Source of the DNA: Bacillota bacterium
GTDB taxonomy: Bacteria > Bacillota > Dethiobacteria > DTU022
Direction: 5' to 3'
Length of the DNA stretch: 64,000 bases
NCBI GenBank assembly: GCA_040751775.1
Contig: JBFMGD010000008.1
Coordinates: forward strand, 15,431-79,430
Of this stretch, positions 47,707-61,887 are shown piece after piece. A program made the position numbers and the translations under genes. The notes under the pieces were generated by a model, which ran no database searches, was not told the origin of the DNA, and saw nothing but the letters and a program-made list of their open reading frames with translations. Every line of letters begins with the position of its first letter. Position 1 is the stretch's first letter.

Positions 47707-48609
47707 ATGAAGCTTTTCAAAGTTACCGCGTTACTGCTTGCTGTTTTGTTGATGTCGCTGCTGTTTGTAGGGGGTTGTGGTGAACCTGAGCAAGCCGAAG
47801 AGTATACGGTGGTCATCGCCGGCAAAGGATGGGCTGAAAACATGACCCTGGCCTACATGGCTGCTCTGCTCATCGAAGCGAACACGGACCTTAAAGTTGA
47901 CACCACTAAGGTTAATATGGGCCCGACGGAAATGCTTCACCCCGCGCTGGTGGAAGGACAGATCGATCTTTACCCCGAGTACACCGGCACCGCCTGGATG
48001 GTTGTATTAAAGCAGGAAGTCATCCAGGATCGGGTGGAGATTTTTGAAAAGTCGCGTGATGCTTACCAGGAACAATTCGGCATTACCTGCTTAGATCCCC
48101 TGGGCTTCCAAAACACCTTTGCCATCGCCATGCCTCGTGAAAAAGCGGAAGAACTGGGCATTACCACACTTTCCGAACTGGCGGCATTTCCCGATTTAAC
48201 TTTTGTCGGCGATTCTACCACGTTTACCCGGCCTGACGTCTACCTGGGCCTGGCGGAAACCTACGGCTTAAATATGAACCAGGTGATTGTTGATACCGCC
48301 TTCTTCTATGAAGCGCTGGCCCAAGGCCAGGGTGATGTAACGACCTGCTTCTCAACTGACGGCCGCTTAAAGGAATATGGTTTTGTCGTTCTCGAAGACG
48401 ACAAGAGCTTCTTCCCGCCGTACGATGCAATGTTCGTAGTACGTACTGAACTCCTGGAGCAATATCCAGAAATAGCCGAAGCCCTGGCCCCGCTCCTTGG
48501 GACCATCGACGGCGAGACAATGACCGAGTTGAACTACAAAGTTGAAGTAGAACAACAGGAGCCAGAGGATGTAGCCAGAGAGTTTTTGAAAGCGAGAGGG
48601 CTCATCTAG
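47707..48609 (+). CDS. Glycine-betaine/choline/carnitine-type substrate-binding lipoprotein
   Basis: Signal peptide with lipobox LFVGGC. OpuAC/OpuCC-like fold (…YPEYTGTAW…). Confidence 0.75.
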   Translation: MKLFKVTALLLAVLLMSLLFVGGCGEPEQAEEYTVVIAGKGWAENMTLAYMAALLIEANTDLKVDTTKVNMGPTEMLHPALVEGQIDLYPEYTGTAWMVVLKQEVIQDRVEIFEKSRDAYQEQFGITCLDPLGFQNTFAIAMPREKAEELGITTLSELAAFPDLTFVGDSTTFTRPDVYLGLAETYGLNMNQVIVDTAFFYEALAQGQGDVTTCFSTDGRLKEYGFVVLEDDKSFFPPYDAMFVVRTELLEQYPEIAEALAPLLGTIDGETMTELNYKVEVEQQEPEDVAREFLKARGLI

Positions 48610-48625
48610 GCAACAGAGAGGCGGT

Positions 48626-49735
48626 ATGGGTATGACCCGTGAAATCAGTGTAGAACTGCAAAGTGTCAGCAAGCTATACGGCACGGATAAGGTGGTCGAT
48701 GAGGTCAGCCTGACCATTGAAAAGGGTGAAATCTTTGTCTTGATCGGCCCTTCCGGTTGTGGGAAAACCACCACTTTAAAGATGATCAATCAGCTGATAC
48801 CGCATACTTCCGGCCAAATACTGGTTAACGGGGTGGATGTGACGAAGCTCGACGCAGTCGAGCTTCGTCGCTCCATTGGCTATGTTATCCAGTATATTGG
48901 TCTGCTGCCTCACCTTACCATCCAGGAGAATATTACCTTTGTGCTCCAGCTGAAAAAATGCTCCAAAAAGGAGCAGAAAGAACGGGCCCACGAGTTGATT
49001 GAGACCGTGGGGCTTCCTGTTTCTTACCTGAAAAGGTACCCCCGGGAACTGAGCGGGGGGCAGCAGCAGCGGGTCGGTGTGGCCCGGGCCTTGGCCGCCA
49101 ACCCGGAGATCCTGCTGATGGATGAGCCTTTTGGCGCGGTAGATCCCCTTACCCGGGAACAGTTGCAAAATGAACTGCTGAGGCTGCAGGAAACCATTCA
49201 GAAGACCATTGTTTTCGTAACCCACGATATGCAGGAAGCTTTTAAAGTGGGCAACCGTATCGGAATACTGCGGCAGGGCAAACTGGTCTGCCTGGGAACG
49301 GCCATGGAGATCGTCAAGTCGGCAGACGAGTTTGTCCAGAACTTTATCGGTCAAGGCGCCCTTTTCGAGGTGTTGGATACTATCCCCATATCCAGGGTTA
49401 TGCAAAACAATGTCCCCTCCATATCGGAAAATGGAATTGTCAAGCGCGACGGTGATCAAATAAACGGATGGGAAAACGTGTTCGTGCTCGATGCTAAGGG
49501 CGCTTGCCTGGGACTCGTACCACTGGCAGAGTTGGGACCCGATGGGGCGGTATCGCCGGAGAAAATTCACCCGCTCCCCCCCGGTTACCCTCCCGGCATC
49601 TCAGTAAAACAAGCGGTGGAGAAGATGCTATGGGGCGGCCGGACATGGCTTCCGGTAGTTTCAGATGAAGGTCATTTCATGGGCATCGTCACGTTTCAAT
49701 CCTGCGCCGGACTGCTGTTTCAGGAGAGGAGGTAG
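48626..49735 (+). CDS. ABC transporter ATP-binding protein with C-terminal tandem CBS domains (OpuCA/OpuAA-like)
   Basis: GPSGCGKTT Walker A, LSGGQQQRV signature, Walker B LLMDEPFGAVD. CBS-type C-terminus. Confidence 0.85.
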   Translation: MGMTREISVELQSVSKLYGTDKVVDEVSLTIEKGEIFVLIGPSGCGKTTTLKMINQLIPHTSGQILVNGVDVTKLDAVELRRSIGYVIQYIGLLPHLTIQENITFVLQLKKCSKKEQKERAHELIETVGLPVSYLKRYPRELSGGQQQRVGVARALAANPEILLMDEPFGAVDPLTREQLQNELLRLQETIQKTIVFVTHDMQEAFKVGNRIGILRQGKLVCLGTAMEIVKSADEFVQNFIGQGALFEVLDTIPISRVMQNNVPSISENGIVKRDGDQINGWENVFVLDAKGACLGLVPLAELGPDGAVSPEKIHPLPPGYPPGISVKQAVEKMLWGGRTWLPVVSDEGHFMGIVTFQSCAGLLFQERR

Positions 49736-49738
49736 GGA

Positions 49739-50389
49739 ATGGCTTTATTTGCTGATGCCTGGGCCTATTTCACCCTCAAAAGAGAGTTCATGTTCCTGGT
49801 TCTTAAAGACCACGTTACACTGGTTCTCTGGGCAACCCTGTTTACTATCCTCATCGGCGTGCCCGTGGGCATCGTCATCGCCCGGACCAAACGATTAAAA
49901 GAGATCGTGCTCGGCTTTGTCGGCATTCTTTACACCATTCCCATCCTCGCCTTTTTCGGATTTCTTATTCCGATCATGGGCATCGGAACCAGGCCGGCCC
50001 TGGTGGCCCTGATCATATACGGTCTTTTGCCGGTTATCCGCAACACATGCGTCGGGATTAACCAGGTCCATCCGATGACCAAGGAAGCAGCCCTGGGTAT
50101 GGGGGCCAGCAGCCTGCAGCTGCTGTTCCGGGTAGAGATTCCGCTGGCCTTTCCGGTCATTTTTGCCGGAATCCGAACAGCCCTGGTGATGAATTTTTCC
50201 CTGGCTACCTATGCCGTTTTTATCGGGGCGGGGGGCATGGGTAGGATTATTATGCAGGGGATCCGCACCTATAACACCGGGATGCTGCTGGCTGGAATAT
50301 TACTGGTGGTCATTACCACGGTCTTATTGGACCGTTCCGTCGGCCGGGTAGACCATGGTATCCAAAAGCGTTTTAGCCTGGGAAAATAA
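49739..50389 (+). CDS. OpuC-type ABC transporter permease 2
   Basis: Paralogous to permease 1 (…LPVIRNTC[TV]GI…V[DH]P…KEAA[KL]GMGA[TS]S[FL]QLL[LF]RVE[LI]PLA[LF]PVI…). Confidence 0.8.
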   Translation: MALFADAWAYFTLKREFMFLVLKDHVTLVLWATLFTILIGVPVGIVIARTKRLKEIVLGFVGILYTIPILAFFGFLIPIMGIGTRPALVALIIYGLLPVIRNTCVGINQVHPMTKEAALGMGASSLQLLFRVEIPLAFPVIFAGIRTALVMNFSLATYAVFIGAGGMGRIIMQGIRTYNTGMLLAGILLVVITTVLLDRSVGRVDHGIQKRFSLGK

Positions 50390-50405
50390 TTGAGGAGGCT
50401 CTACG

Positions 50406-51404
50406 GTGAGCGAATATGTCCTGCACTATGTCGATGCCCACGTGGGAGGGGAGTCTTTGCGCCTCATTCTGCGGGGCCCGCAGCTCAAGGGAAGCACATT
50501 GTTGGAAAAAAGGGACCATATGATTAAAAATTATGATTTTATCCGTACCGCCATTGTGCTGGAGCCCCGGGGACATGACGACATGTACGGGGCGGTGGCG
50601 GTTGACCCCTGTCACCCCGGCGCAGACCTGGGTATTATCTTTATTGACGGCGCGTTTTATAACAACATGTGCGGCCACGGCTCCATTGCCATCGCCACCA
50701 TTGCCGTTGAACTAGGCCTGGTGCCGTCAAAAGAGCCGGTTACCGATGTGGTCTTGGAAACGGGAGCCGGCCTGGTAACCGTTCAGGTAGAGGTGAAAAA
50801 TGGTAGTGCCGGGGAAGCCGCCTTAAAGGGTGTGCCTTCCTTCCTCTACCGTGCCGGCCAGTCCATTCAGCTGCCGGGGCAAACCGTATCGGTGGATATC
50901 GGTTTCGGGGGCAACTTTTTCGTCATCGTCGAAATGGACCACCTGGGCCTTAAGCACTCTAAAGAAAATATCCCGGATTTTATCCGCTACGGGCTGGCCA
51001 TTCGGGAAGCAGTCAACCAAAATATTCCCGTCGCCCACCCTGAAAAACCGTACATTAACTCCGTTGAAGATATCCTCTTTGTTAAAGAACCGGACTTTCC
51101 CGGCGATACCCATAAAAGCCTGGTCGTCCTGGGGCATGCCATGGTGGACCGCTCCCCCTGTGGAACCGGGACCTGCGCCCGCATGGCCATGCTTTATGCC
51201 GGGGGAAAGCTCGGAAAGGGAACCCCTTTTTATCACGAAAGTATCACCGGCGCACTCTTTGAAGGGATGGTATTGGGTGAGACCGCAGTGGGAGATTTCC
51301 CGGCCGTACTCCCCCAAGTGAAAGGGCGGGCTTTTATTACCGGGATCGGAAATCTGTTGATTAACTCCGCCGACCCCCTCAAGTACGGCTTTTCGCTTCG
51401 CTAA
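50406..51404 (+). CDS. Proline racemase / 4-hydroxyproline epimerase family enzyme (both catalytic cysteines present)
   Basis: GTG start after GAGGAGG. NMCGHGS (first Cys) and DRSPCGTGTCARMA (second Cys) are conserved. Confidence 0.8.
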   Translation: MSEYVLHYVDAHVGGESLRLILRGPQLKGSTLLEKRDHMIKNYDFIRTAIVLEPRGHDDMYGAVAVDPCHPGADLGIIFIDGAFYNNMCGHGSIAIATIAVELGLVPSKEPVTDVVLETGAGLVTVQVEVKNGSAGEAALKGVPSFLYRAGQSIQLPGQTVSVDIGFGGNFFVIVEMDHLGLKHSKENIPDFIRYGLAIREAVNQNIPVAHPEKPYINSVEDILFVKEPDFPGDTHKSLVVLGHAMVDRSPCGTGTCARMAMLYAGGKLGKGTPFYHESITGALFEGMVLGETAVGDFPAVLPQVKGRAFITGIGNLLINSADPLKYGFSLR

Positions 51405-51444
51405 ATTAAATTGATGTTTCGCTGAAAGAAGAGGCAGGGTTAAG

Positions 51445-52872
51445 ATGACAACTCGAAAGCTATCACCATTGAAGCTCTTAATGGAAGGAGACCTGACGCG
51501 GATTCATGATGCGTCGGTTAAGGTTCTTGAAGAGACTGGGATGGTGTTTCAAAAACGGGAAGCTTTGGAGATATTTAAAAAACACGGAGCCAAAGTTTCC
51601 GGTAATACAGTCTATATCCCCCGGAAAATGATTGAAAATGCATTGGCCCAGTGCCCCAGAACTGTGAAATGGCGGGCGAGGAATGAAGAGAAATCCATCG
51701 AAGTGGGAAGAGGATTTCATGTTCAGGCGGGCGGAGGATCCGTCTATATCCAGGATGCTGACCATGGCCGCCGGAAGAGTAAGTTGGTGGATTTCACCAA
51801 CATGCAAAAGCTTTACCAGTCCAGCGACGTCATCGATGTAGTTGGGTTCACCCCGGTGGACGCAAGCGACTTAAATCCGGAGTGCAAGCACCTGCATATG
51901 CAACACGCGATCCTGTTTAATACGGATAAGCCGATTCACGGACATGTATGTGGTGGGAAAAAAGCGGGCCAAATGTTGGATATGGCCGAAATCGCCTTTG
52001 GCGAAGAGGGTTTGATGAAGAATCACCACGTGATGGGGCTTTCCATAAATACCATTTCCCCCTTAGGTTTCGGCGAAGAACAAATCGATACCCTGATGGA
52101 ATATGTCAGCCGGAATCAGATTATTATTGCTGCTCCTTTGGCGATCGGCGGAGTAAGCGCGCCTTTGAGTCACGTGGGGATGACGGTCCTGGTGAACGCG
52201 GAAATCCTGGCCATGATCGTTCTGGTGCAGTTGCTCAATCCGGGAAACCCGATCATTACTGGGCCTTCTTCATCATTTGCCGACATGAAGACAGGCGCTT
52301 ACTGCGCGGCTTCACCCGACGGGATGCTGCATCTCATCACCCATATTCAATTAAGCCGGGATCTTTACCGCCTTCCTACCCGCGTGCTCGGCGGTGCCTG
52401 TGATTCCAAGGCAGTTGACGCCCAGGCCGGATTCGAGACCATGCAGAACCTGATGCTGAGCATCTTTGCCGGTTCCGATATGATTGCCCATGCCAGCGGG
52501 GTGTTGGATGGGCTCATGACCATATCCTACGAGAAGATGATTATTGACGAAGAACTGGTTCGCAGGGCAAGATATTTAATCACGCGACCGGTGGAAGTAT
52601 CAGACCGGGAGCTGTCAGTTGATGTAATCGGCGAAGTGAGTCCCGGAGGCAGCTATCTTTTGCATCACAGCGTCTACGAAAAATGCCGGGATCTGTTCCA
52701 GCCGGGGGTATCAGGATGCTCCAATTTCGGGGAGCAGCAGGGCAGCAGTGATATCATGATGCAGGCCAACAAGACCTTCAAGGATCGGTTGGCGAAGGCG
52801 CCGGAAACGCTCCTTGATCCGGTGGTGGACCTGGAATTAAGGTCTTACATGGATCGCTTAATGAACAGTTAA
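51445..52872 (+). CDS. MttB-superfamily (non-pyrrolysine) methyltransferase homologue 2
   Basis: …LTRIHDASVKVLEETGMVFQKREALEIFKKHGAKVSGNTVYIPRKMIENAL… is the MttB-family N-terminus. Uninterrupted frame. Confidence 0.8.
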   Translation: MTTRKLSPLKLLMEGDLTRIHDASVKVLEETGMVFQKREALEIFKKHGAKVSGNTVYIPRKMIENALAQCPRTVKWRARNEEKSIEVGRGFHVQAGGGSVYIQDADHGRRKSKLVDFTNMQKLYQSSDVIDVVGFTPVDASDLNPECKHLHMQHAILFNTDKPIHGHVCGGKKAGQMLDMAEIAFGEEGLMKNHHVMGLSINTISPLGFGEEQIDTLMEYVSRNQIIIAAPLAIGGVSAPLSHVGMTVLVNAEILAMIVLVQLLNPGNPIITGPSSSFADMKTGAYCAASPDGMLHLITHIQLSRDLYRLPTRVLGGACDSKAVDAQAGFETMQNLMLSIFAGSDMIAHASGVLDGLMTISYEKMIIDEELVRRARYLITRPVEVSDRELSVDVIGEVSPGGSYLLHHSVYEKCRDLFQPGVSGCSNFGEQQGSSDIMMQANKTFKDRLAKAPETLLDPVVDLELRSYMDRLMNS

Positions 52873-52883
52873 CCAGCCGGATT

Positions 52884-54317
52884 TTACAGCACATTCTCCG
52901 GATTCCAAATGCCAATGGAATCATAGGTGTCTTTTAGTTTTTGCAACTCCCTGATATACTCGCCGGGGGCCATCTTCAGGAACATCGTTTTTTTCAATTT
53001 CCCTATGCCGTGCTGCGTTTCAATTTTCCCTTCTTTGCCTGCGAACTCTTCCGCCCATTGCTCCAGCAAATACCGGCCTTTTTCATATTGAAGATAATTT
53101 ACGGGCAGCAGATTTACATGGAGACGATTTTCGCCGATGTGGCCGAAAATTGATGCTTTTAGCCCTGCCGCCGCCAGGTCCGTCTCGTATTTGGTAATCG
53201 CCGCCGGCAAGTCAATATTCTCCAGGCCTATGTACGATTCCAACTTGGTTAGGCGCGGCTCCTCCTGTCTTACTCTTTCCGTAAATAGATTGGCGCACTC
53301 GGCTGCCGCATGGCGAAAAGCTCTCAGCTTTTCAACCTCTGCCTCCCCGGCGACCGCCCAGGCCCGGTCCGGGTCGCTGTTTGACCTCAGGGCCAGGTCC
53401 ATTAACATTTCAGCTATCTCTTCAACGGCCTCCTCCTGCCGGTTGTGAAATTCAAGGTAAATTGATGCGGTAACCGTCGAATCGATCTCCGGGATATGTT
53501 TTAAACTTGTAAACCCTGCTTTTCTCTCCCGGATCAGCTCTAGGGTTGCTCCGTCGATATATTCCGCCGCGGCAAGGCCTGCGCTCTCCAGCTGCAAATC
53601 CGCTGCGACTAGGTAATCAGCAAAGGCAAACAGCGCTTCTTTCTCTTCAAAAAAAAAGGTGAAGCCCCATATTTCCTTGGGCTTCGGCTGCAGCTTTAAG
53701 GTAAGCTCCGTGAAGATGCCGAACAACCCCTCGCCGCCCAGGAACAGGTCCAGTAAATCTATATGGCCCCCAGGGAAAGGGATCAGGGTCTTGCCCCGCT
53801 GTAGTTCCAGCACGGCCCCGCTGGAGAGGGCTATTTTAGCCCCTGCAACATACTCCCTGGCTTCCCCGTACCGGCGGGAGCAGGGTCCCCTGGCGTTGCA
53901 CGAGGCGACGCCTCCCGCGGTCGCGGAACTTTCAGTGGGGTCGGGCGGCCAGCACAGCTCCTCTTCATATCTCAGCATTTTCAACTCTCGATTCAGTTCC
54001 CGCAGGGTAATGCCCGGTTCAACTTTAAGCAGGGTCTCCCCCCGGCCGGTGCTGATGAAGCGTTTGACCCGGTTCATTTTCGACAGGTTGAGGATATGGC
54101 CTCCCGGTGGAACCGCCCCTCCGGCAATACCGGTTTTGCCACCCTGGATGGTAATGGGGACATTTTTCTCCCTCATCCGGGCTACAATTTCTGCGATCTC
54201 CGGCTCAGACTGGGGAAAAGATATGCTTGCGGCTGTTCCGGCCAGCTTTGATTCGTCGGTTAAATAGTCGCGGTATTTTTCTGCCAACGGGAAGATTAAC
54301 GATCCCGCCATAAGCAT
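52884..54317 (-). CDS. FAD-binding PCMH-type oxidase (GlcD/D-lactate-dehydrogenase-like) 2
   Basis: FAD_binding_4 region (…PITIQGGKTGIAGGAVPPGGHILNLSKMNRV…). Adjacent to etfA. Confidence 0.75.
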   Translation of the reverse strand: MLMAGSLIFPLAEKYRDYLTDESKLAGTAASISFPQSEPEIAEIVARMREKNVPITIQGGKTGIAGGAVPPGGHILNLSKMNRVKRFISTGRGETLLKVEPGITLRELNRELKMLRYEEELCWPPDPTESSATAGGVASCNARGPCSRRYGEAREYVAGAKIALSSGAVLELQRGKTLIPFPGGHIDLLDLFLGGEGLFGIFTELTLKLQPKPKEIWGFTFFFEEKEALFAFADYLVAADLQLESAGLAAAEYIDGATLELIRERKAGFTSLKHIPEIDSTVTASIYLEFHNRQEEAVEEIAEMLMDLALRSNSDPDRAWAVAGEAEVEKLRAFRHAAAECANLFTERVRQEEPRLTKLESYIGLENIDLPAAITKYETDLAAAGLKASIFGHIGENRLHVNLLPVNYLQYEKGRYLLEQWAEEFAGKEGKIETQHGIGKLKKTMFLKMAPGEYIRELQKLKDTYDSIGIWNPENVL

Positions 54318-54331
54318 CTCCCCTCCTTTAA

Positions 54332-55297
54332 TCAGCGCTTTTTATCCCGGATAAGCAGCTTTACCAACTCATCCAGGACCGGTTCATAATCATCAATAAC
54401 AGCCACATCCGCAGCCTGCACCAGGGGGGCCCCTTCATCGGTATTGATGGCGATGATCCGTTCGCTTTGCTCGATGCCGGCAAAAAAAGCGGCGGCTCCT
54501 GATACACCGGCGGCGATACACAACCGGGGTTTGGTGATGGCACCGGATACCCCGACCAGCCGGTGCAGCGGAGTCCAGGCGCTCATGGCCACCGGCCGGC
54601 TTACTCCCAGCTCTGCACCGATTACCCCGGCGACCTCTTTGAGACGGCCGGCTTTTTCCTTGCTTTTTACGCCCCTGCCGGCCACCAGGATAAATTGAGC
54701 CTGCTCCAGGCCGCCGCCGGTTTCCGCTTCTGTAAATTGATAATCTTCGCCGCATCCCTCTTTTGCAAAGCCGGCCATATCCACTTCCGATATCTCTTGA
54801 ATGTTTTTTCTGGTGGAAGATTGAACAGCGGCTGAGCCTTTGGCAATGGAGAGGCAAAAAGGTTTTTTACGAAGCAGAAACTTGCCCTGCAGGTAATTGG
54901 CGTAAACCGCCTTGTAACAGATGAACTGATTTTCCACCAACTCCAGCTTATTGACAGCCACCAAGGAACTTCCCCCCATCCGGTAGGCGAACCGGACCGC
55001 CATTTCGCTGCCGAAAAAGTTGCCGGGGAATAGATATAAATCTGCAACCCGGTCCCGCTCCAGCGTTGTCAAGATCTCCAGGGCGCTTTCCGGGTAATGC
55101 CTTTTAACCTTGACCATCTTGAGAGAGGAGGTCGGCGAGTGGGCGATTAAATCTTGTTTCCGGCTATCGTTGCTGTAAAAAATGATGCTGTTGCCCGCCG
55201 TAGGCCCCTCCGGGCAAGCGTCCAGGAAGCCCCGGACCTCTCCTGCCTGGGAGTGAAAGTCCCCTGAACAGCCGTTTAAAACCGCCGTACATTTCAT
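54332..55297 (-). CDS. etfA: Electron-transfer flavoprotein alpha subunit
   Basis: C-terminal …CIAAGVSGAAAFFAGIEQSERIIAINTDEGAPLVQAADVAVIDD…. Start placed at MKCTAV, giving an ATGA overlap with etfB. Confidence 0.8.
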   Translation of the reverse strand: MKCTAVLNGCSGDFHSQAGEVRGFLDACPEGPTAGNSIIFYSNDSRKQDLIAHSPTSSLKMVKVKRHYPESALEILTTLERDRVADLYLFPGNFFGSEMAVRFAYRMGGSSLVAVNKLELVENQFICYKAVYANYLQGKFLLRKKPFCLSIAKGSAAVQSSTRKNIQEISEVDMAGFAKEGCGEDYQFTEAETGGGLEQAQFILVAGRGVKSKEKAGRLKEVAGVIGAELGVSRPVAMSAWTPLHRLVGVSGAITKPRLCIAAGVSGAAAFFAGIEQSERIIAINTDEGAPLVQAADVAVIDDYEPVLDELVKLLIRDKKR

Positions 55298-56106
55298 AAC
55301 TGCTCCAACCACTCTTTCAGATACGCATCGTAGAGGGCCCTGGCTTTTTCAGCCGGGGTGGCCCCCTGGACAATTACCCCTTCCCTGTTGCGGTCGATTA
55401 GCGCCAACCCCTGCAGTTCACAACCGGTATCGAAGCAATTAAAAATACCCTGGAGGCCAAACTGCTCCAGGTCCATAACCTCGATCTCTTTTTTTCCGCA
55501 GGCGTATTTTTCCTTGAGGGTCGGCACTCTCAGGTAAGCGTTCGGCACATTCCCCACGGCCAGGACGCAGGGGGTTCTGACTGTCTGTTGCACCAGGCCG
55601 CCGTCCACCATGGCTGTAACCTTGAGACGGCTTGCTTCGCCGGGCTCCACTCTGGTGACCTGGGTAATACACGGCCACTTGAGCATTTCGGCCGCCAGCA
55701 GGGGTGTCTTGGCGTTGTCGCCCACGCCGCTTTGCCGGCCCATGATCAGTAAATCCTGTTTGCCGTAAAGTTCCACGTAACGGCATATTACCGAGGCTAC
55801 AGCCTCCGGTGAAAACCTGGCCTCAACACTGTTTTCAATTCTTACCGCCTTGGCAAATTGCAAGGCGTATAAAGTTTTTAAATAGATATCCGCCTTCTCG
55901 TCGCCGATGGTTAGCGCCGTGAGGTTAACGCTCTGACCGGCGCTTTCGGAAAACCGCAAAGCCATTTCAAGAGCACTTTCATCATAGGCATTGAGAATTG
56001 TTTTCGCATAGCCGGTCTCCACCCGTAAGAGACTGTCTATAAACCAGTCGCTTCCGGCGAGCTGATCCAGGTCGGGGACCACTTTGAAACATACCAGTAT
56101 ATCCAT
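55294..56106 (-). CDS. etfB: Electron-transfer flavoprotein beta subunit
   Basis: MDILVCFKVVPDLDQL… is an EtfB N-terminus. Confidence 0.8.
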   Translation of the reverse strand: MDILVCFKVVPDLDQLAGSDWFIDSLLRVETGYAKTILNAYDESALEMALRFSESAGQSVNLTALTIGDEKADIYLKTLYALQFAKAVRIENSVEARFSPEAVASVICRYVELYGKQDLLIMGRQSGVGDNAKTPLLAAEMLKWPCITQVTRVEPGEASRLKVTAMVDGGLVQQTVRTPCVLAVGNVPNAYLRVPTLKEKYACGKKEIEVMDLEQFGLQGIFNCFDTGCELQGLALIDRNREGVIVQGATPAEKARALYDAYLKEWLEQL

Positions 56107-56108
56107 GA

Positions 56109-57551
56109 TTACCGCCTCGGAAAGATCGTTCCCCTGTTCATGATCCCGTTGGGATCAAAAGCTTTTTTCAAGGTTTCCACGATGTAGTACGAAGAGCCGT
56201 ACTCGTCCTTGATCCAGGGGGTCCGGTGTTTGCCGACTCCATGGTGGTGGCACATGGAGCCCCCGGCCTTGATGGTTTCTTCCACGATAATTTTCTTGAT
56301 GGGCAGGTGATACTTGGTAATCTCTTCTTCCGGCTTGCAGTCGACGACATTGTAGTAGTGGACAAAGTACATGTTAGTGCCGTTCAGATAGCTGTGGGAG
56401 GAATGGCCGCCGATCAGGGTGATATCGGGTATTTCATTGCGGATCCTTTCAACGCAAATCTCATAGATGTCATTGATGATCCCCCAGTTGGCCGATATCT
56501 CGGTGGTGTTGCCGATATTTTTCGTTTCCACGATTTCAGCTCTTTCCTCGGCAACCTTGGAAACATCCCAGTTCAAATTGTTGAACCATACCTGGATATA
56601 TTTCGGGTCAACTTTTTGACATTCTTCGGATTGGGCCACGATCTCTTCAATGGCGCGGCCGGTGGCATCGGCGAGGGGTTTGGGGCCCTCGGCCATAAAG
56701 ATGAGCACGCATTTGTTCCCGGCGAAATGGGAGAAATGGTAGGCTCCGTCTTCCGGATCGTAAAGGCGGGCCACGGAAGGCCTGTAGCCGTTGGCCATTA
56801 CTTCCCGCAGGAGTTCAAAACCTGTTTTCATCCTGTCCAGGGTGTAACCCAGGAGAATGATATTTTCCGGCATAAATTTAAAGATTTTTACCGTCACCTC
56901 GGTGATATAGCAGATCGCCCCTTCGTTGCCGATGATGACGTGCCTGATATCGGGACCCGCCGCTCTGCGGGGTACATTCTTGATTCTCGTAATTTCGCCG
57001 TTGGGGAAGACCGCTTCCAGACCCACCACCATCTCTTCGATTCCGCCGTAGAGGGTTGAAAACTGGCCGATACTCCTGGTGGCAACCAGGCCGCCCATTT
57101 GCGCCAGGGGTTTGGACTGGGGGGAATGGCCCGTGGTATATCCCTGTTCCCGCAACCGGTCCTCCAGAACCTGAAGGGGTGTGCCGCACTGGCAGGTGGC
57201 CTGCATGTTATAGGTGTCTATCTGGATAATTTGATTCATTCTAGAACCATCAACGACGAGTGAATTTTCCACGGCGGTCTCCAGGCCGCCTTCCGTTGCC
57301 GAATGACCGGTACGCGGTACGACGTTGATCCGGTGCTCGTTGGCAAATTTTAAAACAGCCGACACCTCAGCCGTACTGTGTACATAAACCACCGCTGCCG
57401 GTATTGGCTGGGTGTAGACGCCGTGCAGCTCCTCAAACCTTCTGAACCGGTCCACGCTGCTTTCTTTTAAAACCTGCTCGTCGGTAATGACCTGATCCTC
57501 TCCCAGGATTTCCATCATCTTCTCCACGATTTGCTCCCTTGCCATCGGCAT
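56109..57551 (-). CDS. FAD-binding PCMH-type oxidase (GlcD-like) 1
   Basis: …NVVPRTGHSATEGGLETAVENSLVVDGSRMNQI… FAD_binding_4. C-terminal HHHGVGKHR oxidase C-terminal motif. Confidence 0.75.
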   Translation of the reverse strand: MPMAREQIVEKMMEILGEDQVITDEQVLKESSVDRFRRFEELHGVYTQPIPAAVVYVHSTAEVSAVLKFANEHRINVVPRTGHSATEGGLETAVENSLVVDGSRMNQIIQIDTYNMQATCQCGTPLQVLEDRLREQGYTTGHSPQSKPLAQMGGLVATRSIGQFSTLYGGIEEMVVGLEAVFPNGEITRIKNVPRRAAGPDIRHVIIGNEGAICYITEVTVKIFKFMPENIILLGYTLDRMKTGFELLREVMANGYRPSVARLYDPEDGAYHFSHFAGNKCVLIFMAEGPKPLADATGRAIEEIVAQSEECQKVDPKYIQVWFNNLNWDVSKVAEERAEIVETKNIGNTTEISANWGIINDIYEICVERIRNEIPDITLIGGHSSHSYLNGTNMYFVHYYNVVDCKPEEEITKYHLPIKKIIVEETIKAGGSMCHHHGVGKHRTPWIKDEYGSSYYIVETLKKAFDPNGIMNRGTIFPRR

Positions 57552-57639
57552 AACGCTAAGCTCCTTTGCTTTTATTATTTCAGGGCCGCTCGGCTCCAGC
57601 GCACTCCAGGCGGCCGGCCGCCTTTTAGACTATATTAGA

Positions 57640-59079
57640 TTATCGAAATATGGGGTATGATTTTTTCAAGATCTCGTCCGTGTAAACAGTGATATCTTTA
57701 TAGACTTCGTCATTCATTCTGCGGTATAAAGCGGTGTTGGCTTTATCGGGCAGGAATCTGTCCCTTATCTTAACCATTTTTTCTATGGCCGTTACGTAAC
57801 CGTCGTGTATGCCGGTGGCCACCGCGGCACAGATGGCCGCGCCCAGGCTGGCGGAACCGTTAACCGCATTTCTGGTCGTGGGGATGCCGAAAACATCGGC
57901 AAATATCTGCATGAACAGGTCGCCGTTGGATCCTCCCCCGGAAATAATAAGTTCTTTAAGTTTGATACCCAGTTCAGCGCACATGGCGTCGGCATGGTTT
58001 TTCATAGTCAAAGCGATCCCCTCCAGGATGGAGCGGAACATGTGGCCCCCGGTGTGGCGTACGTCAAAACCGATCATCAAGCCCTTCTTGTAGGGCGTTT
58101 CCGGGCGGGCTAACCAGTCCAGCACGGTCATCAAGCCGTCGCTGCCGGGAGGAACCTTTTCCCCTTCGTTGTTTAAATAGACTTCCGCGGGGATGCCCAG
58201 TGCCCGGGCTTTCAGCGCAACCTCATCACCCAGAAGATCTTTCATCCAGCTTATTGTCCACATTCCCCTGCGGATGCCGGTACTCTCGTATAAATAGTGG
58301 TGCGGCATGGATGCAAGGTTGGTAAAGAAATGTGCTGCCTCCTTCACGACTTTATGGCCGTACACCATGGATGTAATATAGGTCCCCAGGGAAACCAGGG
58401 CGGTGTTACCGGGGAGCAGGCCGGCACCCAGAGCTTCCACCGCTTTGTCGTTGGCCGTGGCGATGACGGGGATGCCGGCGGGAATGCCCGTGGCCTCCGC
58501 CGCTTTTTCCGTGACATATCCGGCGATGGTTCCGGGCAGCAGCAGATTGAAGAGCATCTCCCGGGGAATGTTGTACTGCTTGAAAATTTCCGGGTTATCG
58601 CTCCATTGCCATGTATCCTTGTCAATGGGCCATTGACCTTCGTAGTTGGCGACCGTGTCGCTGAACTCACCGGTAAGACGGTGGGTCATATAACCGGTGG
58701 TGGTGGTCACATATTTAACCTGAGGATCGAGGTGTTCATAAGGCCTGGAGAGCCTTAAATCCATCCAGCTGATAACCGGAGATGCCAGGGAGCCGTCTTC
58801 TTTTAATAGAACCCTGCAGCAGCGAATAGTGCACAGCCCTAAACCGATGATATCTTTAACGTTTCCGGTAAAACGCCGCATAGCCTGCTTGCTCGCCGCT
58901 GTAAGAGAGTCCCACAGGTCATCATCCGGATGCTCCACCACTCCCGGCCCGGGTAAACTCATCGCTCGTAAATCCTGTCTTCCTTCACAGATCACGTTCC
59001 CTTCAAGGTCGAAGATGACGACCTTTGAGCTCTGCGAGCCGCCGTCAATGCCGATAATATATTTTTTTGCCATTTTCAA
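57640..59079 (-). CDS. FGGY-family carbohydrate kinase (glycerol-kinase-like)
   Basis: MKMAKKYIIGIDGGSQSSKVVIFD…VVEHPDDDLW is a GlpK/XylB-type N-terminus. FGGY C-terminal domain. Confidence 0.8.
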   Translation of the reverse strand: MKMAKKYIIGIDGGSQSSKVVIFDLEGNVICEGRQDLRAMSLPGPGVVEHPDDDLWDSLTAASKQAMRRFTGNVKDIIGLGLCTIRCCRVLLKEDGSLASPVISWMDLRLSRPYEHLDPQVKYVTTTTGYMTHRLTGEFSDTVANYEGQWPIDKDTWQWSDNPEIFKQYNIPREMLFNLLLPGTIAGYVTEKAAEATGIPAGIPVIATANDKAVEALGAGLLPGNTALVSLGTYITSMVYGHKVVKEAAHFFTNLASMPHHYLYESTGIRRGMWTISWMKDLLGDEVALKARALGIPAEVYLNNEGEKVPPGSDGLMTVLDWLARPETPYKKGLMIGFDVRHTGGHMFRSILEGIALTMKNHADAMCAELGIKLKELIISGGGSNGDLFMQIFADVFGIPTTRNAVNGSASLGAAICAAVATGIHDGYVTAIEKMVKIRDRFLPDKANTALYRRMNDEVYKDITVYTDEILKKSYPIFR

Positions 59080-59111
59080 CTTCCCGCCCTTCTGCAGCTT
59101 TGGCTCTGCGG

Positions 59112-59894
59112 CTACCTGACCAGGTAGCCGCCGTCCACCACCAGGATATGACCATTGACGTAATCTGAAGCCCTACTGGCCAGGAATACAATGGCCCCCA
59201 TCAGGTCCGCGGGATCACCCCAGCGATTGGCCGGAACATGGTCCATCACTCTTTTATTTGCCTCGGGGCTGTTCCTGGTTTTGACCGTCAGCTCGGTAGC
59301 GTAATATCCCGGGGCAAGACCATTTACCTGAATATTAAATTGGGCCAGCTCGTCGCAGTAGGCCTTAGTGAAACCGGCCAGCCCGTGTTTCGTCGCCGCA
59401 TATGCCGGAGACCACTGGCCCCCCAGGAACGAAAACAGTGAGCAGATGTTGATGATCTTTCCGCTTCTTTGGGGGATCATTTTTTTTGCCGCTGCATGGC
59501 TTAGTTCGAAAGGTGCAGTAAGGTTAACGGCAAGCATCGGATCCCATGCGCTTCGACCGAATTCAAGGACATTTTGTTCATTAATACAGACACCGGCGCT
59601 GTTCACCAGAATATCAACAGAGCCAAGAGTATCAACACAGGCGTCAATGACTTTTAGGGCTGCTCCTTTTTCCGTGATATCTGTTTTCATAAATGCAAAC
59701 TTCACCCCTTCACTTTCGATCAGGGTTTTGGTGGCGCCGTCATCTTCGGCGAGGCTTGGAATAAACAGGTTCGCCCCGGCCTTGGCCAAGGCCAAGGCAA
59801 AAGCCTGTCCCAGCCCTGTGTTTCCACCGGTAATGATGGCGTTCTTGCCCTTTAATGAAAAGTGGTCCATGGAGAAGTCCTTAATACCCATCAT
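59112..59894 (-). CDS. Short-chain dehydrogenase/reductase (KduD/gluconate-5-DH-like)
   Basis: KGKNAIITGGNTGLG (TGxxxGxG), active-site YAATK and PG motif. Start placed at MMGIKDF after the GGAGGG RBS rather than at the tool's 59939. Confidence 0.8.
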   Translation of the reverse strand: MMGIKDFSMDHFSLKGKNAIITGGNTGLGQAFALALAKAGANLFIPSLAEDDGATKTLIESEGVKFAFMKTDITEKGAALKVIDACVDTLGSVDILVNSAGVCINEQNVLEFGRSAWDPMLAVNLTAPFELSHAAAKKMIPQRSGKIINICSLFSFLGGQWSPAYAATKHGLAGFTKAYCDELAQFNIQVNGLAPGYYATELTVKTRNSPEANKRVMDHVPANRWGDPADLMGAIVFLASRASDYVNGHILVVDGGYLVR

Positions 59895-59947
59895 CAATCC
59901 CTCCGCTTTAATCGGTTTCGAAATAGACATGGAGAGCATGCAATTTC

Positions 59948-59997
59948 AAAAAAAAGAGAAAAAAGCACACTTCCATACGGAAATTACTTTTCTCTCT
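59948..59997 (-). terminator. Leader terminator-like hairpin (candidate GlpP-responsive antitermination site)
   Basis: On the minus-strand transcript: AAGAGAGAAAAG–(21-nt loop containing a UUCC/GGAA mini-hairpin)–CUUUUUUCUCU then U8. That is an 11-bp stem with one G·U, ending ~45 nt before the SDR start. Confidence 0.55.
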
Positions 59998-60084
59998 TCA
60001 CTAGTAATTTAATTAAAGTATAAAATTTATTTCAATAAATGTCAATGAGCTGGTGTTTAGGTTTTTCCAGGTAACTACCGAACT

Positions 60085-60648
60085 TTACAAGCCCCATACT
60101 TCGGGGTTAGTTGAACAAATAGCCGTTGCGCCGGCTTTTAGGGCGGCCACGACGTCCTCCTTGCAGCAGATCAAGCCGCCTGAAATTATCGGTATCTTCG
60201 TTTTCTCCATAACCCAGGAAATTAGTTTAGGCCAACCCGGTAAGATTTCTATATAATCGGGTTGAGAGAGCTCAATTTGCTTATCGAGATTTCCGAAAGA
60301 AAATGAGTCAATAACGAACAACCTGTGAACGGTAATCAAACCCTGAGATTTGGCTGCTTTAAGCATAGCTGCTTTGGCGCTCAAAATACCGTCTGCCCGG
60401 GTATTATCTTTCATGTATTGAATAACAATCTCTTTGTTGGCAAAGCCTTCGAGCAGATCAACATTAATAAAGGCCATCTTTCCGCTGTCTTTAATTTTTT
60501 GGGCTATTTCAATGATATTTAAAACATTGCCGTATAGAATAAAGACGATTTTGCAATCAGAGGCCAGGACAGCCTTTAAACCCTCGTCGTCTTTGATAGC
60601 CGGTATGATGGGATAATCTTCCAATATGGTATCCAGCTTTTTATTCAT
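60085..60648 (-). CDS. glpP: GlpP-family glycerol-3-phosphate-responsive antiterminator
   Basis: PIIPAIKDD…VHRLFVIDS…ILPGW…IPIISGGLI…EDVVAALKAGATAICSTN aligns with B. subtilis GlpP. Start at MNKK (60648) follows GGAGG; the upstream ATG at 60675 would translate the RBS itself. Confidence 0.8.
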   Translation of the reverse strand: MNKKLDTILEDYPIIPAIKDDEGLKAVLASDCKIVFILYGNVLNIIEIAQKIKDSGKMAFINVDLLEGFANKEIVIQYMKDNTRADGILSAKAAMLKAAKSQGLITVHRLFVIDSFSFGNLDKQIELSQPDYIEILPGWPKLISWVMEKTKIPIISGGLICCKEDVVAALKAGATAICSTNPEVWGL

Positions 60649-61266
60649 TTTTCCTCCGTAAAAAAAGTGCTTCACTAATCATTTTATAATATATCTTCAT
60701 AGATGCCCACTCATTTCTTTACTACCATTCATGCCGCTTTGCTAGATTAACCTGTTTTTACAGAGCTTTTACCTGACTTCAATTTAGAATTAACACTCCT
60801 TTGATATAGTATATATTAGTTTAGTAATGCTGCATTTCCGGGTACATTTTGGCAAAGTAATAGCCGCTGCTTCCGTAAGCGGGAAAATAGGAAGCGATGA
60901 TCACTTTTTCCGCGATTACCTAATGCCCGTCTTTGGTTATTACAGCGCATGGGTTGCCTTCATGAAAATCTACCGCCCTGGTTCCATGCGCTTTCTTTGA
61001 CATTGCCATCTCCGGAATAGGGTAGGGCATACGCGAGGTAGTAATATATTGGGGATTTACCGTATGTTTTATTGTAACGCCACAGCTTCTCTACTTAACC
61101 CGGGTTTTTTTAAAATAATATTGACATTCATGTCATAATCTTTATATAATATATAAAAACCATTCATAAGATTATTTAAATTAAGTTTTCTCCTTATTAC
61201 AACAGTTATTTGGTCCGAATAAGCAGCCGTACATGGATTTCGGGTAGAACAGTACGGGTCCGGGAG

Positions 61267-61887
61267 CTATTCGGTAGTTTGGTATACACCGCCGGTGTAA
61301 AGCTCAAACAAGTTCTCGCTGATTTGTTCGATATCGTTTTCACGCTCCCAGACGATATCCCATAAAAATTCCCGGATCATATAGACAATACCCTTGGCGA
61401 TGATTTTTGTCTGAAGCGGCCTGGCCAGGTGGTGTTCCTGGGAATAATGCAGATCTTCGATCGTCCGCTCAATGAAGCGGTTAAAAATGTCGTCCCAGTA
61501 GCTGCGGGTCACCTTTGAATGGCCCAGGGCATCCCATATAATTTGAAATACATGGCGGTTTTCCCTGGCCAGTTTCAGCACGCTGTAAATCTGGTTGTAT
61601 ACTATTTCACGCACATCCGCATAACGGGAAGGACTGTAGTTGATGTAAACAACTTTTCCGATCTTTGTCATTACGTCGTCCACCAGGTTTTGCAGCAGCT
61701 CTTCTTTGTCTTTGAAATGGATATAGACTGTCCCGTAGCCTATTCCGGCCCGGCTGCTGATATCCTTAAAGGTGGTTCCGGTGTACCCTTTTTCCAGAAA
61801 AACCGACTTGGCCGACTCAAGAATAGCTTTTCTGGTGCAGGCTGAACGTTTTTTACGGCCGTCGATTTTTGTTTCATGTTTTTCCAT
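61267..61887 (-). CDS. TetR/AcrR-family transcriptional regulator
   Basis: N-terminal HTH (…AKSVFLEKGYTGTTFKDISSRAGIGYGTVYIHF…). Confidence 0.85.
   Translation of the reverse strand: MEKHETKIDGRKKRSACTRKAILESAKSVFLEKGYTGTTFKDISSRAGIGYGTVYIHFKDKEELLQNLVDDVMTKIGKVVYINYSPSRYADVREIVYNQIYSVLKLARENRHVFQIIWDALGHSKVTRSYWDDIFNRFIERTIEDLHYSQEHHLARPLQTKIIAKGIVYMIREFLWDIVWERENDIEQISENLFELYTGGVYQTTE

Follow-up and report, generated by a model that had tools for sequence, protein, structure and literature searches.

To date, it is in the glycerol regulon of Bacillus that antitermination of the GlpP type has been demonstrated, and Glatz is said to have found in 1998 that GlpP binds the glpD leader RNA directly. 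In the BglG/SacY/LicT systems, the ribonucleic antiterminator (RAT) hairpin overlaps the terminator, and this weak 5' structure wins only when the ligand-controlled protein binds to it. In B. subtilis, GlpP acts on the leader terminators of glpD, glpFK and glpTQ (PMC9604022; PMC10573289), two papers in which the glp leader work of Holmberg & Rutberg (1991/1992) and Glatz et al. (1996) is cited; antitermination by HutP is described in PMC2425495. Here we report on a leader RNA element in a 64,000-nt stretch of contig JBFMGD010000008.1 from a Bacillota bacterium (hereafter the window), located in the spacer at 59895-60084 that separates, on the minus strand, a glpP-like gene from a short-chain dehydrogenase/reductase (SDR) gene. 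We propose that the window carries a variant form of GlpP antitermination, in which the leader RNA is distinct and uncatalogued, the pathway is a different one and the hosts are very diverse, E. coli K-12 among them.

An earlier note on this DNA had placed an intrinsic-terminator-like hairpin in the glpP-SDR spacer, and the minus strand does contain this hairpin. AGAGAGAAAAG (59997..59987) pairs with CUUUUUUCUCU (59965..59955) to form the 11-bp stem with one G·U that the note had described, and a run of eight T follows at 59955..59948, the first T doubling as the last base of the stem. Folding of the whole element with ViennaRNA, the kind of check suggested in the note, gave a single 21-bp hairpin (59999..59953) of -23.0 kcal/mol with a bulged G at 59968, a GUAU tetraloop at 59978..59975 and a stem composed of 5 G-C, 4 G·U and 12 A-U pairs. 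The UUCC-GUAU-GGAA mini-hairpin that the note had seen within a 21-nt loop exists as the top of this 21-bp stem (P2), but the loop is not open, as its bases pair. When the 65-nt element was compared to 200 dinucleotide shuffles (mean -9.4 +/- 2.7 kcal/mol), none was as stable (0/200; z = -4.97); for the full 190-nt spacer, z was only -2.2. The stable stem-loop is immediately followed by a U-run, as in intrinsic terminators, and the U-run is found in essentially all copies of the element. The hairpin is most probably an inducible stop signal for transcription, at which termination and read-through are predicted to occur.

The distance between the last U (59948) and the SDR ATG (59894), from which the SDR homologues align, is 53 nt and not the ~45 nt given in the earlier note; the listed start of the open reading frame, 59939, is an in-frame upstream ATG. 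A sigma-70 consensus scan detected no promoter-like site in this 53-nt spacer, as the note had maintained. The note was also right to locate the hairpin behind glpP, but it overlooked both an 11/12 promoter in front of the hairpin and the helix P1 presented below. Because this promoter lies between the glpP stop codon and the hairpin, the hairpin belongs to a promoter-proximal leader and is not just behind glpP. AAAUUACUAGUGAAGAGAGAAAAGUAAUUUCCGUAUGGAAGUGUGCUUUUUUCUCUUUUUUUU (60010..59948) begins seven bases past the end of the promoter, and transcription is predicted to start at about 60010, the first base of the element. A promoter matching at least 10/12 of the consensus and ending 5-10 nt before the element was found in 40 of the 130 distinct upstream regions scanned, mostly from Bacillota and Spirochaetota, and this recurring spacing argues that the element is the extreme 5' end of the transcript. 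In the Enterobacterales copies, a CRP-like TGTGA-N6-TCACA site and a weak -10 stand in place of the consensus promoter, and the element seems, from this sequence context, to be combined with catabolite control.

P1 is a 7-bp helix enclosing a 14-nt purine loop. This loop is the most conserved part of the element: AGAG-A-A-AG was invariant or nearly so in 37 copies and still conserved in 62 distinct copies, which makes the loop the likely recognition sequence. It supplies most of the 5' arm of the lower stem of the terminator, and the bases of the P1 3' strand also form the top of that lower stem and the base of P2. Since the terminator takes its 5' arm from the loop and the P1 3' strand, P1 is in competition with the full terminator; according to the modelled folds, their mutual exclusion would be strict. 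P1 and P2 together are the minimum free energy (MFE) structure of the first 40-42 nt, with -4.6 kcal/mol (-2.3 kcal/mol for P1 alone), but once the 3' arm has been transcribed the terminator dominates, with -23.0 kcal/mol. P1 and P2 being outcompeted in this way, a stabilising factor is needed and the RNA alone should terminate. On this model, P1 is likely to be both the antiterminator and the target of the protein. The loop of P2 is variable across the copies. It should be noted that in four Spirochaetota loci (L023 4093-4202, L024 1337-1449, L025 4081-4192 and L030 4132-4225) an insertion of 50-60 nt replaces P2, with P1, its loop and the lower stem retained.

After a MAFFT alignment of all copies (A2) had misaligned their 3' halves, a seed of 19 sequences was curated (A3); the alignments A5-A7 are model-based. 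For the terminator, 96% of the cells were paired and 13 of the 17 pairs showed a compensatory change, all slid controls being far worse; at one position of the lower stem, A-U occurred 48 times, C-G 7 times and U·G 4 times. RNAalifold, when no structure was supplied, returned the same terminator hairpin with 16 pairs, 12 of them with compensatory change, and in P2 compensatory changes were found in 5 of the 6 pairs. For P1 (A5), 98.4% of the cells were paired compared to 15-62% in slid controls, with compensatory changes in 3 of 7 pairs. Among 100 distinct copies, one P1 pair was A-U in 44 and G-C in 55, and a second was U-A in 89 and C-G in 9 (GUUACC/GGUAAC in the E. coli ygcW leader); pairing is weak at the outermost position, which is A·C in 11 copies. 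P1 is encoded by a perfect inverted repeat, TTACT-N14-AGTAA, overlapping the predicted start site, and a dimeric transcription factor might bind this repeat as a DNA operator at +1..+30, besides or instead of an RNA helix, the hairpin then being an ordinary attenuator. A palindromic operator would likewise give symmetric covariation. By contrast, the 6-bp core of P1 contained 10 G·U wobbles versus 2 mismatches in the same 100 copies, with one A·C/C·A pair only, a strand-specific behaviour that fits an RNA helix. In addition, conservation is higher in the loop than in the half-sites that flank it, and no DNA-binding regulator is conserved with the element, a nearby TetR-family gene being specific to the window and the E. 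coli cluster being devoid of one. We consider an operator at this position very unlikely.

To follow the element in other genomes, a covariance model (R1) was derived from the A3 seed using the terminator structure, and a profile of 38 close GlpP-like proteins yielded 80 genomic loci (L001-L080). In the window and these 80 glpP-anchored loci, R1 gave 67 sense-strand matches at E < 1e-3; weaker matches on the opposite strand are the reverse complements of the same hairpins. The 64 kb of the window contain one sense match (60010..59949, model positions 1-62, 83.7 bits, E = 3e-14), ending 54 nt upstream of the SDR gene, and further copies in the window were rejected on account of this single match. 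The earlier note had held that absence from orthologous loci would speak against its proposal; the element was present in almost every orthologous locus examined. As a control blind to glpP, a degenerate pattern of the element was scanned over metagenome contigs and gave 120 loci. Sixty-six of these were R1-positive, 62 of which had an SDR, FGGY kinase or flavin adenine dinucleotide (FAD) oxidase gene and 25 a glpP-like gene; in the 41 others, the stored stretch mostly stops before the expected position of this gene. By contrast, one of the 54 R1-negative loci (chance matches) had an SDR/FGGY/FAD-oxidase gene and none had a glpP-like gene.

In total, the element was found more than 180 times, as 101 distinct sequences, with the consensus AAUUACUAG-N-GAnGAGAGAAAAGUAAYUUCC-loop-GGAAGnnnGCUUUUCUCU-U7. 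The hosts belong to six phyla: Bacillota (metagenome-assembled genomes (MAGs) of Syntrophomonadaceae, Sporomusa, Geosporobacter, Cohnella), Spirochaetota, Acidobacteriota (Holophagaceae), Chloroflexota (Anaerolineaceae), Actinomycetota (Streptomyces, Arthrobacter) and Pseudomonadota (Serratia, Rahnella, Ewingella, Photobacterium). Rfam 15 gave no family at the gathering score in the whole window, the best sub-threshold matches in the leader having E ~1, and nothing in the E. coli intergenic region that carries copies of the element. The element is thus uncatalogued and a candidate new RNA family for Rfam. One record titled 'Patescibacteria group bacterium' (L016) has an organisation and a leader nearly identical to those of the Sporomusa loci L014 and L015; its MAG label probably reflects an error in binning or taxonomy.

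In most loci the element precedes the SDR operon, and elsewhere the FAD oxidase or the FGGY kinase, depending on gene order. Second copies precede transporters of the BCCT (~516 aa) or major facilitator superfamily (MFS, ~430 aa) type, FAD oxidase or FGGY kinase genes, which is a regulon-like behaviour. One might argue that the hairpin is a plain constitutive terminator of glpP and that the SDR operon is transcribed from elsewhere or regulated at initiation, for instance by the nearby TetR-family protein or by CRP. In the window and 31 other loci, glpP is followed on its own strand, no more than a few hundred nt away, by the hairpin, with no other terminator between, and in the window arrangement the hairpin must also stop read-through from glpP; the CRP-like sites of the enterobacterial copies would be compatible with such a view. 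However, glpP is divergent, convergent or distant in 39 loci where the element still precedes SDR, transporter or kinase genes, and the placement before the SDR operon is kept with a divergent or convergent glpP in L010, L019, L028, L029, L044, Serratia and E. coli. An element that stays with the target genes when glpP moves is not merely the terminator of glpP. Furthermore, a plain terminator requires neither an invariant 5' sequence nor a covarying upstream helix, and the near-consensus promoter of the window lies between glpP and the hairpin, with none after it. We consider this explanation very unlikely.

Among regulators, the PF04309 gene alone is conserved together with the element. In the window, its product scored 199 bits with Pfam PF04309 (cut-off 27) and matched the structure of Listeria GlpP (PDB 3KTS) with E = 3e-23 and 86 bits; it is ~52% identical to E. 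coli YgcP, the match to Listeria GlpP being far weaker. Its start was set at 60648 on the basis of an identical database protein (P0001, 187 aa). NCBIfam gave no GlpP model match for this regulator and only sub-threshold names for the enzymes, and no PRD, CAT, HutP or ANTAR domain was detected in the cluster by Pfam and NCBIfam scans. SDR, FGGY kinase, FAD oxidase and, in part, electron transfer flavoprotein (ETF) genes are found beside the glpP-like gene in nearly all of the 80 loci, in varying order and orientation, and in 71 of 73 loci the glpP-like gene is not part of the controlled unit. It is from this position and from the precedent of the family that a regulatory role is deduced for the protein. 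The earlier note had proposed a GlpP antitermination target. This proposal is partly supported and, on the whole, largely right. As regards the class of mechanism, the PF04309 neighbour and the conserved leader terminator support it, but the operon does not belong to the glycerol regulon: a glycerol/glycerol-3-phosphate (G3P) operon (glpF, glpK, glpD, glpT, glpQ) was rejected, the genes being orthologous to E. coli ygcW/E/U/R/Q. The FGGY kinase is not GlpK, as it scored 110-118 bits with GlpK models whose cut-offs are 498-590. With a ygc-type operon and a YgcP orthologue as regulator, G3P as the inducer is an assumption.

Could the RNA itself bind a metabolite of the pathway? In such a riboswitch, P1 and its loop, possibly in a pseudoknot with the 3' arm, would be the aptamer, and the PF04309 protein, whose fold we take to be a phosphate-binding TIM barrel, would be an enzyme or have an unrelated role. 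A small structured element whose sequence is very strongly conserved over six phyla, the two alternative structures each with covariation, the location before both catabolic and transporter genes, the lack of an Rfam family covering the element and a linkage to glpP no stronger than that to the enzymes would all agree with this possibility. Yet the candidate aptamer is tiny (a helix of 6-7 bp with a loop of 14 nt, and a P2 whose size varies), its purine box resembles that of glpD leaders, glpP stands outside the controlled unit as regulator genes do, and the linked protein is a member of the only family for which antitermination at leaders of this kind has been reported (PMC9604022). We judge a riboswitch unlikely, and give no more weight to a wider version in which the element would be a cross-phylum regulatory RNA class sensing a metabolite directly or as an RNA-YgcP-ligand ternary complex, with the PF04309 protein as enzyme or co-sensor.

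By analogy with the glp leaders, we regard as probable a protein-dependent antitermination in which the inducer-loaded YgcP/GlpP-type protein holds P1 and its loop and prevents termination. Transcription would begin at about 60010 from the promoter at 60045..60017, and the first ~30 nt would fold into P1 (AAUUACU/AGUAAUU) around the conserved purine loop (..GAGAGAAA). P1 being weak alone, transcription of the 3' arm CUUUUUUCUCU would lead the loop and the P1 3' strand to re-pair as the 21-bp terminator, and RNA polymerase would stop within the U-run, at a distance of 53 nt from the SDR gene. This would be the default OFF state and would end read-through from glpP too. In the presence of the inducer, the adjacent YgcP orthologue would bind P1 and the loop, the 5' arm of the terminator would be unavailable and the operon would be transcribed. 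Both the protein-RNA binding and the identity of the inducer are proposed by analogy, the inducer being most likely the phosphorylated product of the FGGY kinase, as G3P is for GlpK.

Several points weigh against protein-dependent antitermination as outlined above. A simple terminator scan did not list the hairpin at 59999..59953, owing to its A/U-rich stem, its bulge and its 21 pairs, which exceed the 20-pair limit of the scan, and the terminator call consequently rests on folding energy and covariation. The alignments are model-fitted and the sequences related, so that the covariation counts overstate the number of independent events. An H-type pseudoknot in which P1 and the lower terminator stem form together is possible in principle, and gene linkage by itself cannot tell a regulator from a pathway enzyme. 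Finally, two further canonical loci were compared, O. iheyensis glpP-glpF-glpK-glpD and T. caldiproteolyticus glpP-glpD, and R1 with filters off gave no match at E <= 10 in their glpFK or glpD leaders. A P1-like helix is likewise not consistently predicted in canonical glpD leaders, being present in B. subtilis and not clear in the other two. There was also no R1 match in the L. monocytogenes locus L204, which has no adjacent glp genes. Given this result with canonical leaders, the element is not claimed to form one RNA family with the glpD leaders.

Many identical gut-metagenome matches correspond to the ygc cluster of E. coli, which a megablast search located in 5416 of 5426 complete genomes of this species. 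RefSeq annotates ygcW as SDR, ygcE as FGGY kinase, ygcU as FAD oxidase, ygcQ and ygcR as ETF subunits, ygcS as MFS transporter, ygcN and ygcO as FAD-dependent oxidoreductase and ferredoxin-family protein, yqcE, divergent from ygcW, as MFS transporter, and ygcP as "glycerol-3-phosphate responsive antiterminator"; the annotation of strain 2017C-4109 lists ygcQ and ygcS as pseudogenes. R1 matched the leaders of ygcW (L201 10238..10173, minus strand) and yqcE (L201 10379..10441, plus strand). The E. coli cluster and the window thus share an orthologous gene set, with proteins 52-72% identical, and the same leader element. By contrast, E. coli has two divergent leaders behind CRP-type promoters, with ygcP ~6 kb away in another operon, whereas the window has glpP directly upstream and a promoter of the sigma-70 consensus type. 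The CRP-like sites upstream of the Enterobacterales copies agree with the reported CRP binding in the ygcW<>yqcE spacer (PMC3105977) and with CRP activation of yqcE-ygcE (PMC8085971). In Serratia and relatives (L032-L054), a CRP-like site lies 60-70 nt upstream of each copy of the element. In the open-access full-text literature on the ygc genes and PF04309, we found no study of ygc antitermination, only CRP-site and high-throughput mentions; a riboswitch-prediction paper naming ygcW was set aside, its windows lying 3.5-4.2 kb away.

The features of the window are collected in Table 1.

Table 1. Positions of the leader, regulator and operon features in the 64,000-nt window
Feature	Position	Strand	Remark
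glpP-like gene (YgcP-type, PF04309 G3P_antiterm, 187 aa)	60085..60648	minus	presumed trans-acting antiterminator
Stop codon TAA of the glpP-like gene	60087..60085	minus	
Sigma-70 promoter TTGACA-17-TATACT	60045..60017	minus	11/12 consensus match
Conserved leader element (P1, purine loop, P2, terminator 3' arm, U-run), 62 nt	60010..59949	minus	covariance model R1
P1 5' strand AAUUACU	60009..60003	minus	pairs with 59988..59982
P1 loop, 14 nt, purine-rich, AGUGAAGAGAGAAA	60002..59989	minus	
P1 3' strand AGUAAUU	59988..59982	minus	
P2, 6-bp hairpin AUUUCC/GGAAGU with GUAU loop	59984..59969	minus	
Intrinsic-terminator-like hairpin and U-run	59999..59948	minus	hairpin 59999..59953, U-run 59955..59948
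Spacer to the SDR gene	59947..59889	minus	holds Shine-Dalgarno and start codons
Shine-Dalgarno GGAGGG of the SDR gene	59904..59899	minus	
SDR start codons ATG ATG	59894..59889	minus	
Controlled operon	59894..52884	minus	Pfam and NCBIfam scans
SDR, ygcW-like, KduD-like	59894..59112	minus	
FGGY kinase, ygcE-like	59079..57640	minus	
FAD oxidase, ygcU-like, GlcD-like	57551..56109	minus	
ETF beta and alpha	56106..54332	minus	
Second GlcD-like FAD oxidase	54317..52884	minus	

Some further observations concern the surroundings of the leader. In the MFE structure of the 122-nt leader, CUCUCC (59931-59936, minus strand) pairs with the SDR Shine-Dalgarno GGAGGG (59899-59904), and this predicted pairing may be a Shine-Dalgarno-sequestering helix like the RNA thermometers of B. 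subtilis glpF and glpT (PMC10573289). The TetR-family gene (61267..61887, minus strand) lies upstream of glpP across a ~620-nt non-coding gap (60649-61266). This gap contains, at 61121-61150 on the plus strand, a perfect 12/12 sigma-70 consensus promoter, TTGACA-18-TATAAT, which includes the palindrome TGACATTCATGTCA and is directed antisense into the TetR gene. Convergent with the operon, the region 47707-52872 (plus strand) encodes an OpuAC/ABC betaine-type transporter, a proline-racemase-family gene and an MttB-family methyltransferase, and in related Bacillota a BCCT transporter is preceded by the same element (L010 1574-1640, L012 5721-5786, L013 5841-5906 and L026 4453-4519). The betaine-type transporter neighbours and the BCCT genes under the same leader are hints that the substrate of the operon could be an osmolyte-like or quaternary-amine-like compound.

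Taken together, these results pair the PF04309 family with a leader RNA that is sharply defined and covaries; the pairing extends over six phyla, Gram-negative bacteria and Actinomycetota among them, and to nearly all E. coli genomes. A direct test of how this long-standing y-gene cluster of E. coli is regulated is now within reach, and P1 with its GAGAGAAAAG loop offers a specific target for studying RNA recognition by PF04309 proteins. Moreover, the ligand that enables YgcP to bind RNA should be an intermediate of the ygc pathway and would thereby provide a route to its substrate.

When the window is compared to the B. subtilis glp system, the two have in common that the PF04309 protein is encoded beside its target, that a sigma-70 promoter, a short leader, an intrinsic terminator and the operon follow one another in this order, and that termination is, or in the window would be, the default state. 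In the B. subtilis glpD leader (5' untranslated region sequence from PMC9604022, Table S4), a GGUC/GACC helix surrounds a 14-nt loop, CUGAGAUGAGGAGA, and its 3' strand enters the 5' arm of the strong terminator. The P1 loop of the window resembles the GAGAUGAGGAGA box of glpD leaders: both leaders have a purine GAGA...GAGA box 5' of the terminator 5' arm and overlapping it, which reads CUGAGAUGAGGAGA|GACC in glpD and AGUGAUGAGAGAAA|AGUAA in the relatives of the window. In the O. iheyensis and T. caldiproteolyticus glpD leaders, AAGUUAAUAA stands at the start and a GGAGA-N3-GGAGARACC box abuts the terminator, a box which by eye resembles the GWGA-N3-GAGAAAAG box of the window family. In O. iheyensis, where R1 found no window-type element in the glpFK leader, a terminator-like hairpin, AAAAGGAACCUUUAUAGGUUUCUUUUUUU, directly follows the canonical glpP (L202 7545-7578). 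By analogy, the element would work like a glpD leader, and its sequence suggests that it may share the recognition logic of that leader. The earlier note had seen in this locus exactly the arrangement of the glpD and glpFK leaders of Bacillus; the layout does correspond, but the identity goes too far, as R1 does not match the canonical leaders. The window system further differs in that it controls a ygc-type SDR/FGGY/FAD-oxidase/ETF operon, with BCCT or MFS genes in its relatives, and not glpFK, glpD or glpTQ, in that its element starts at +1 with a well-defined covarying P1 and a P2, and in that this element also occurs in Gram-negative bacteria and Actinomycetota. With the BglG/SacY/LicT, HutP and ANTAR systems it shares the logic of a weak 5' RNA structure overlapping the 5' arm of a terminator, whereas their protein folds and RNA sequences are unrelated to those of the window.

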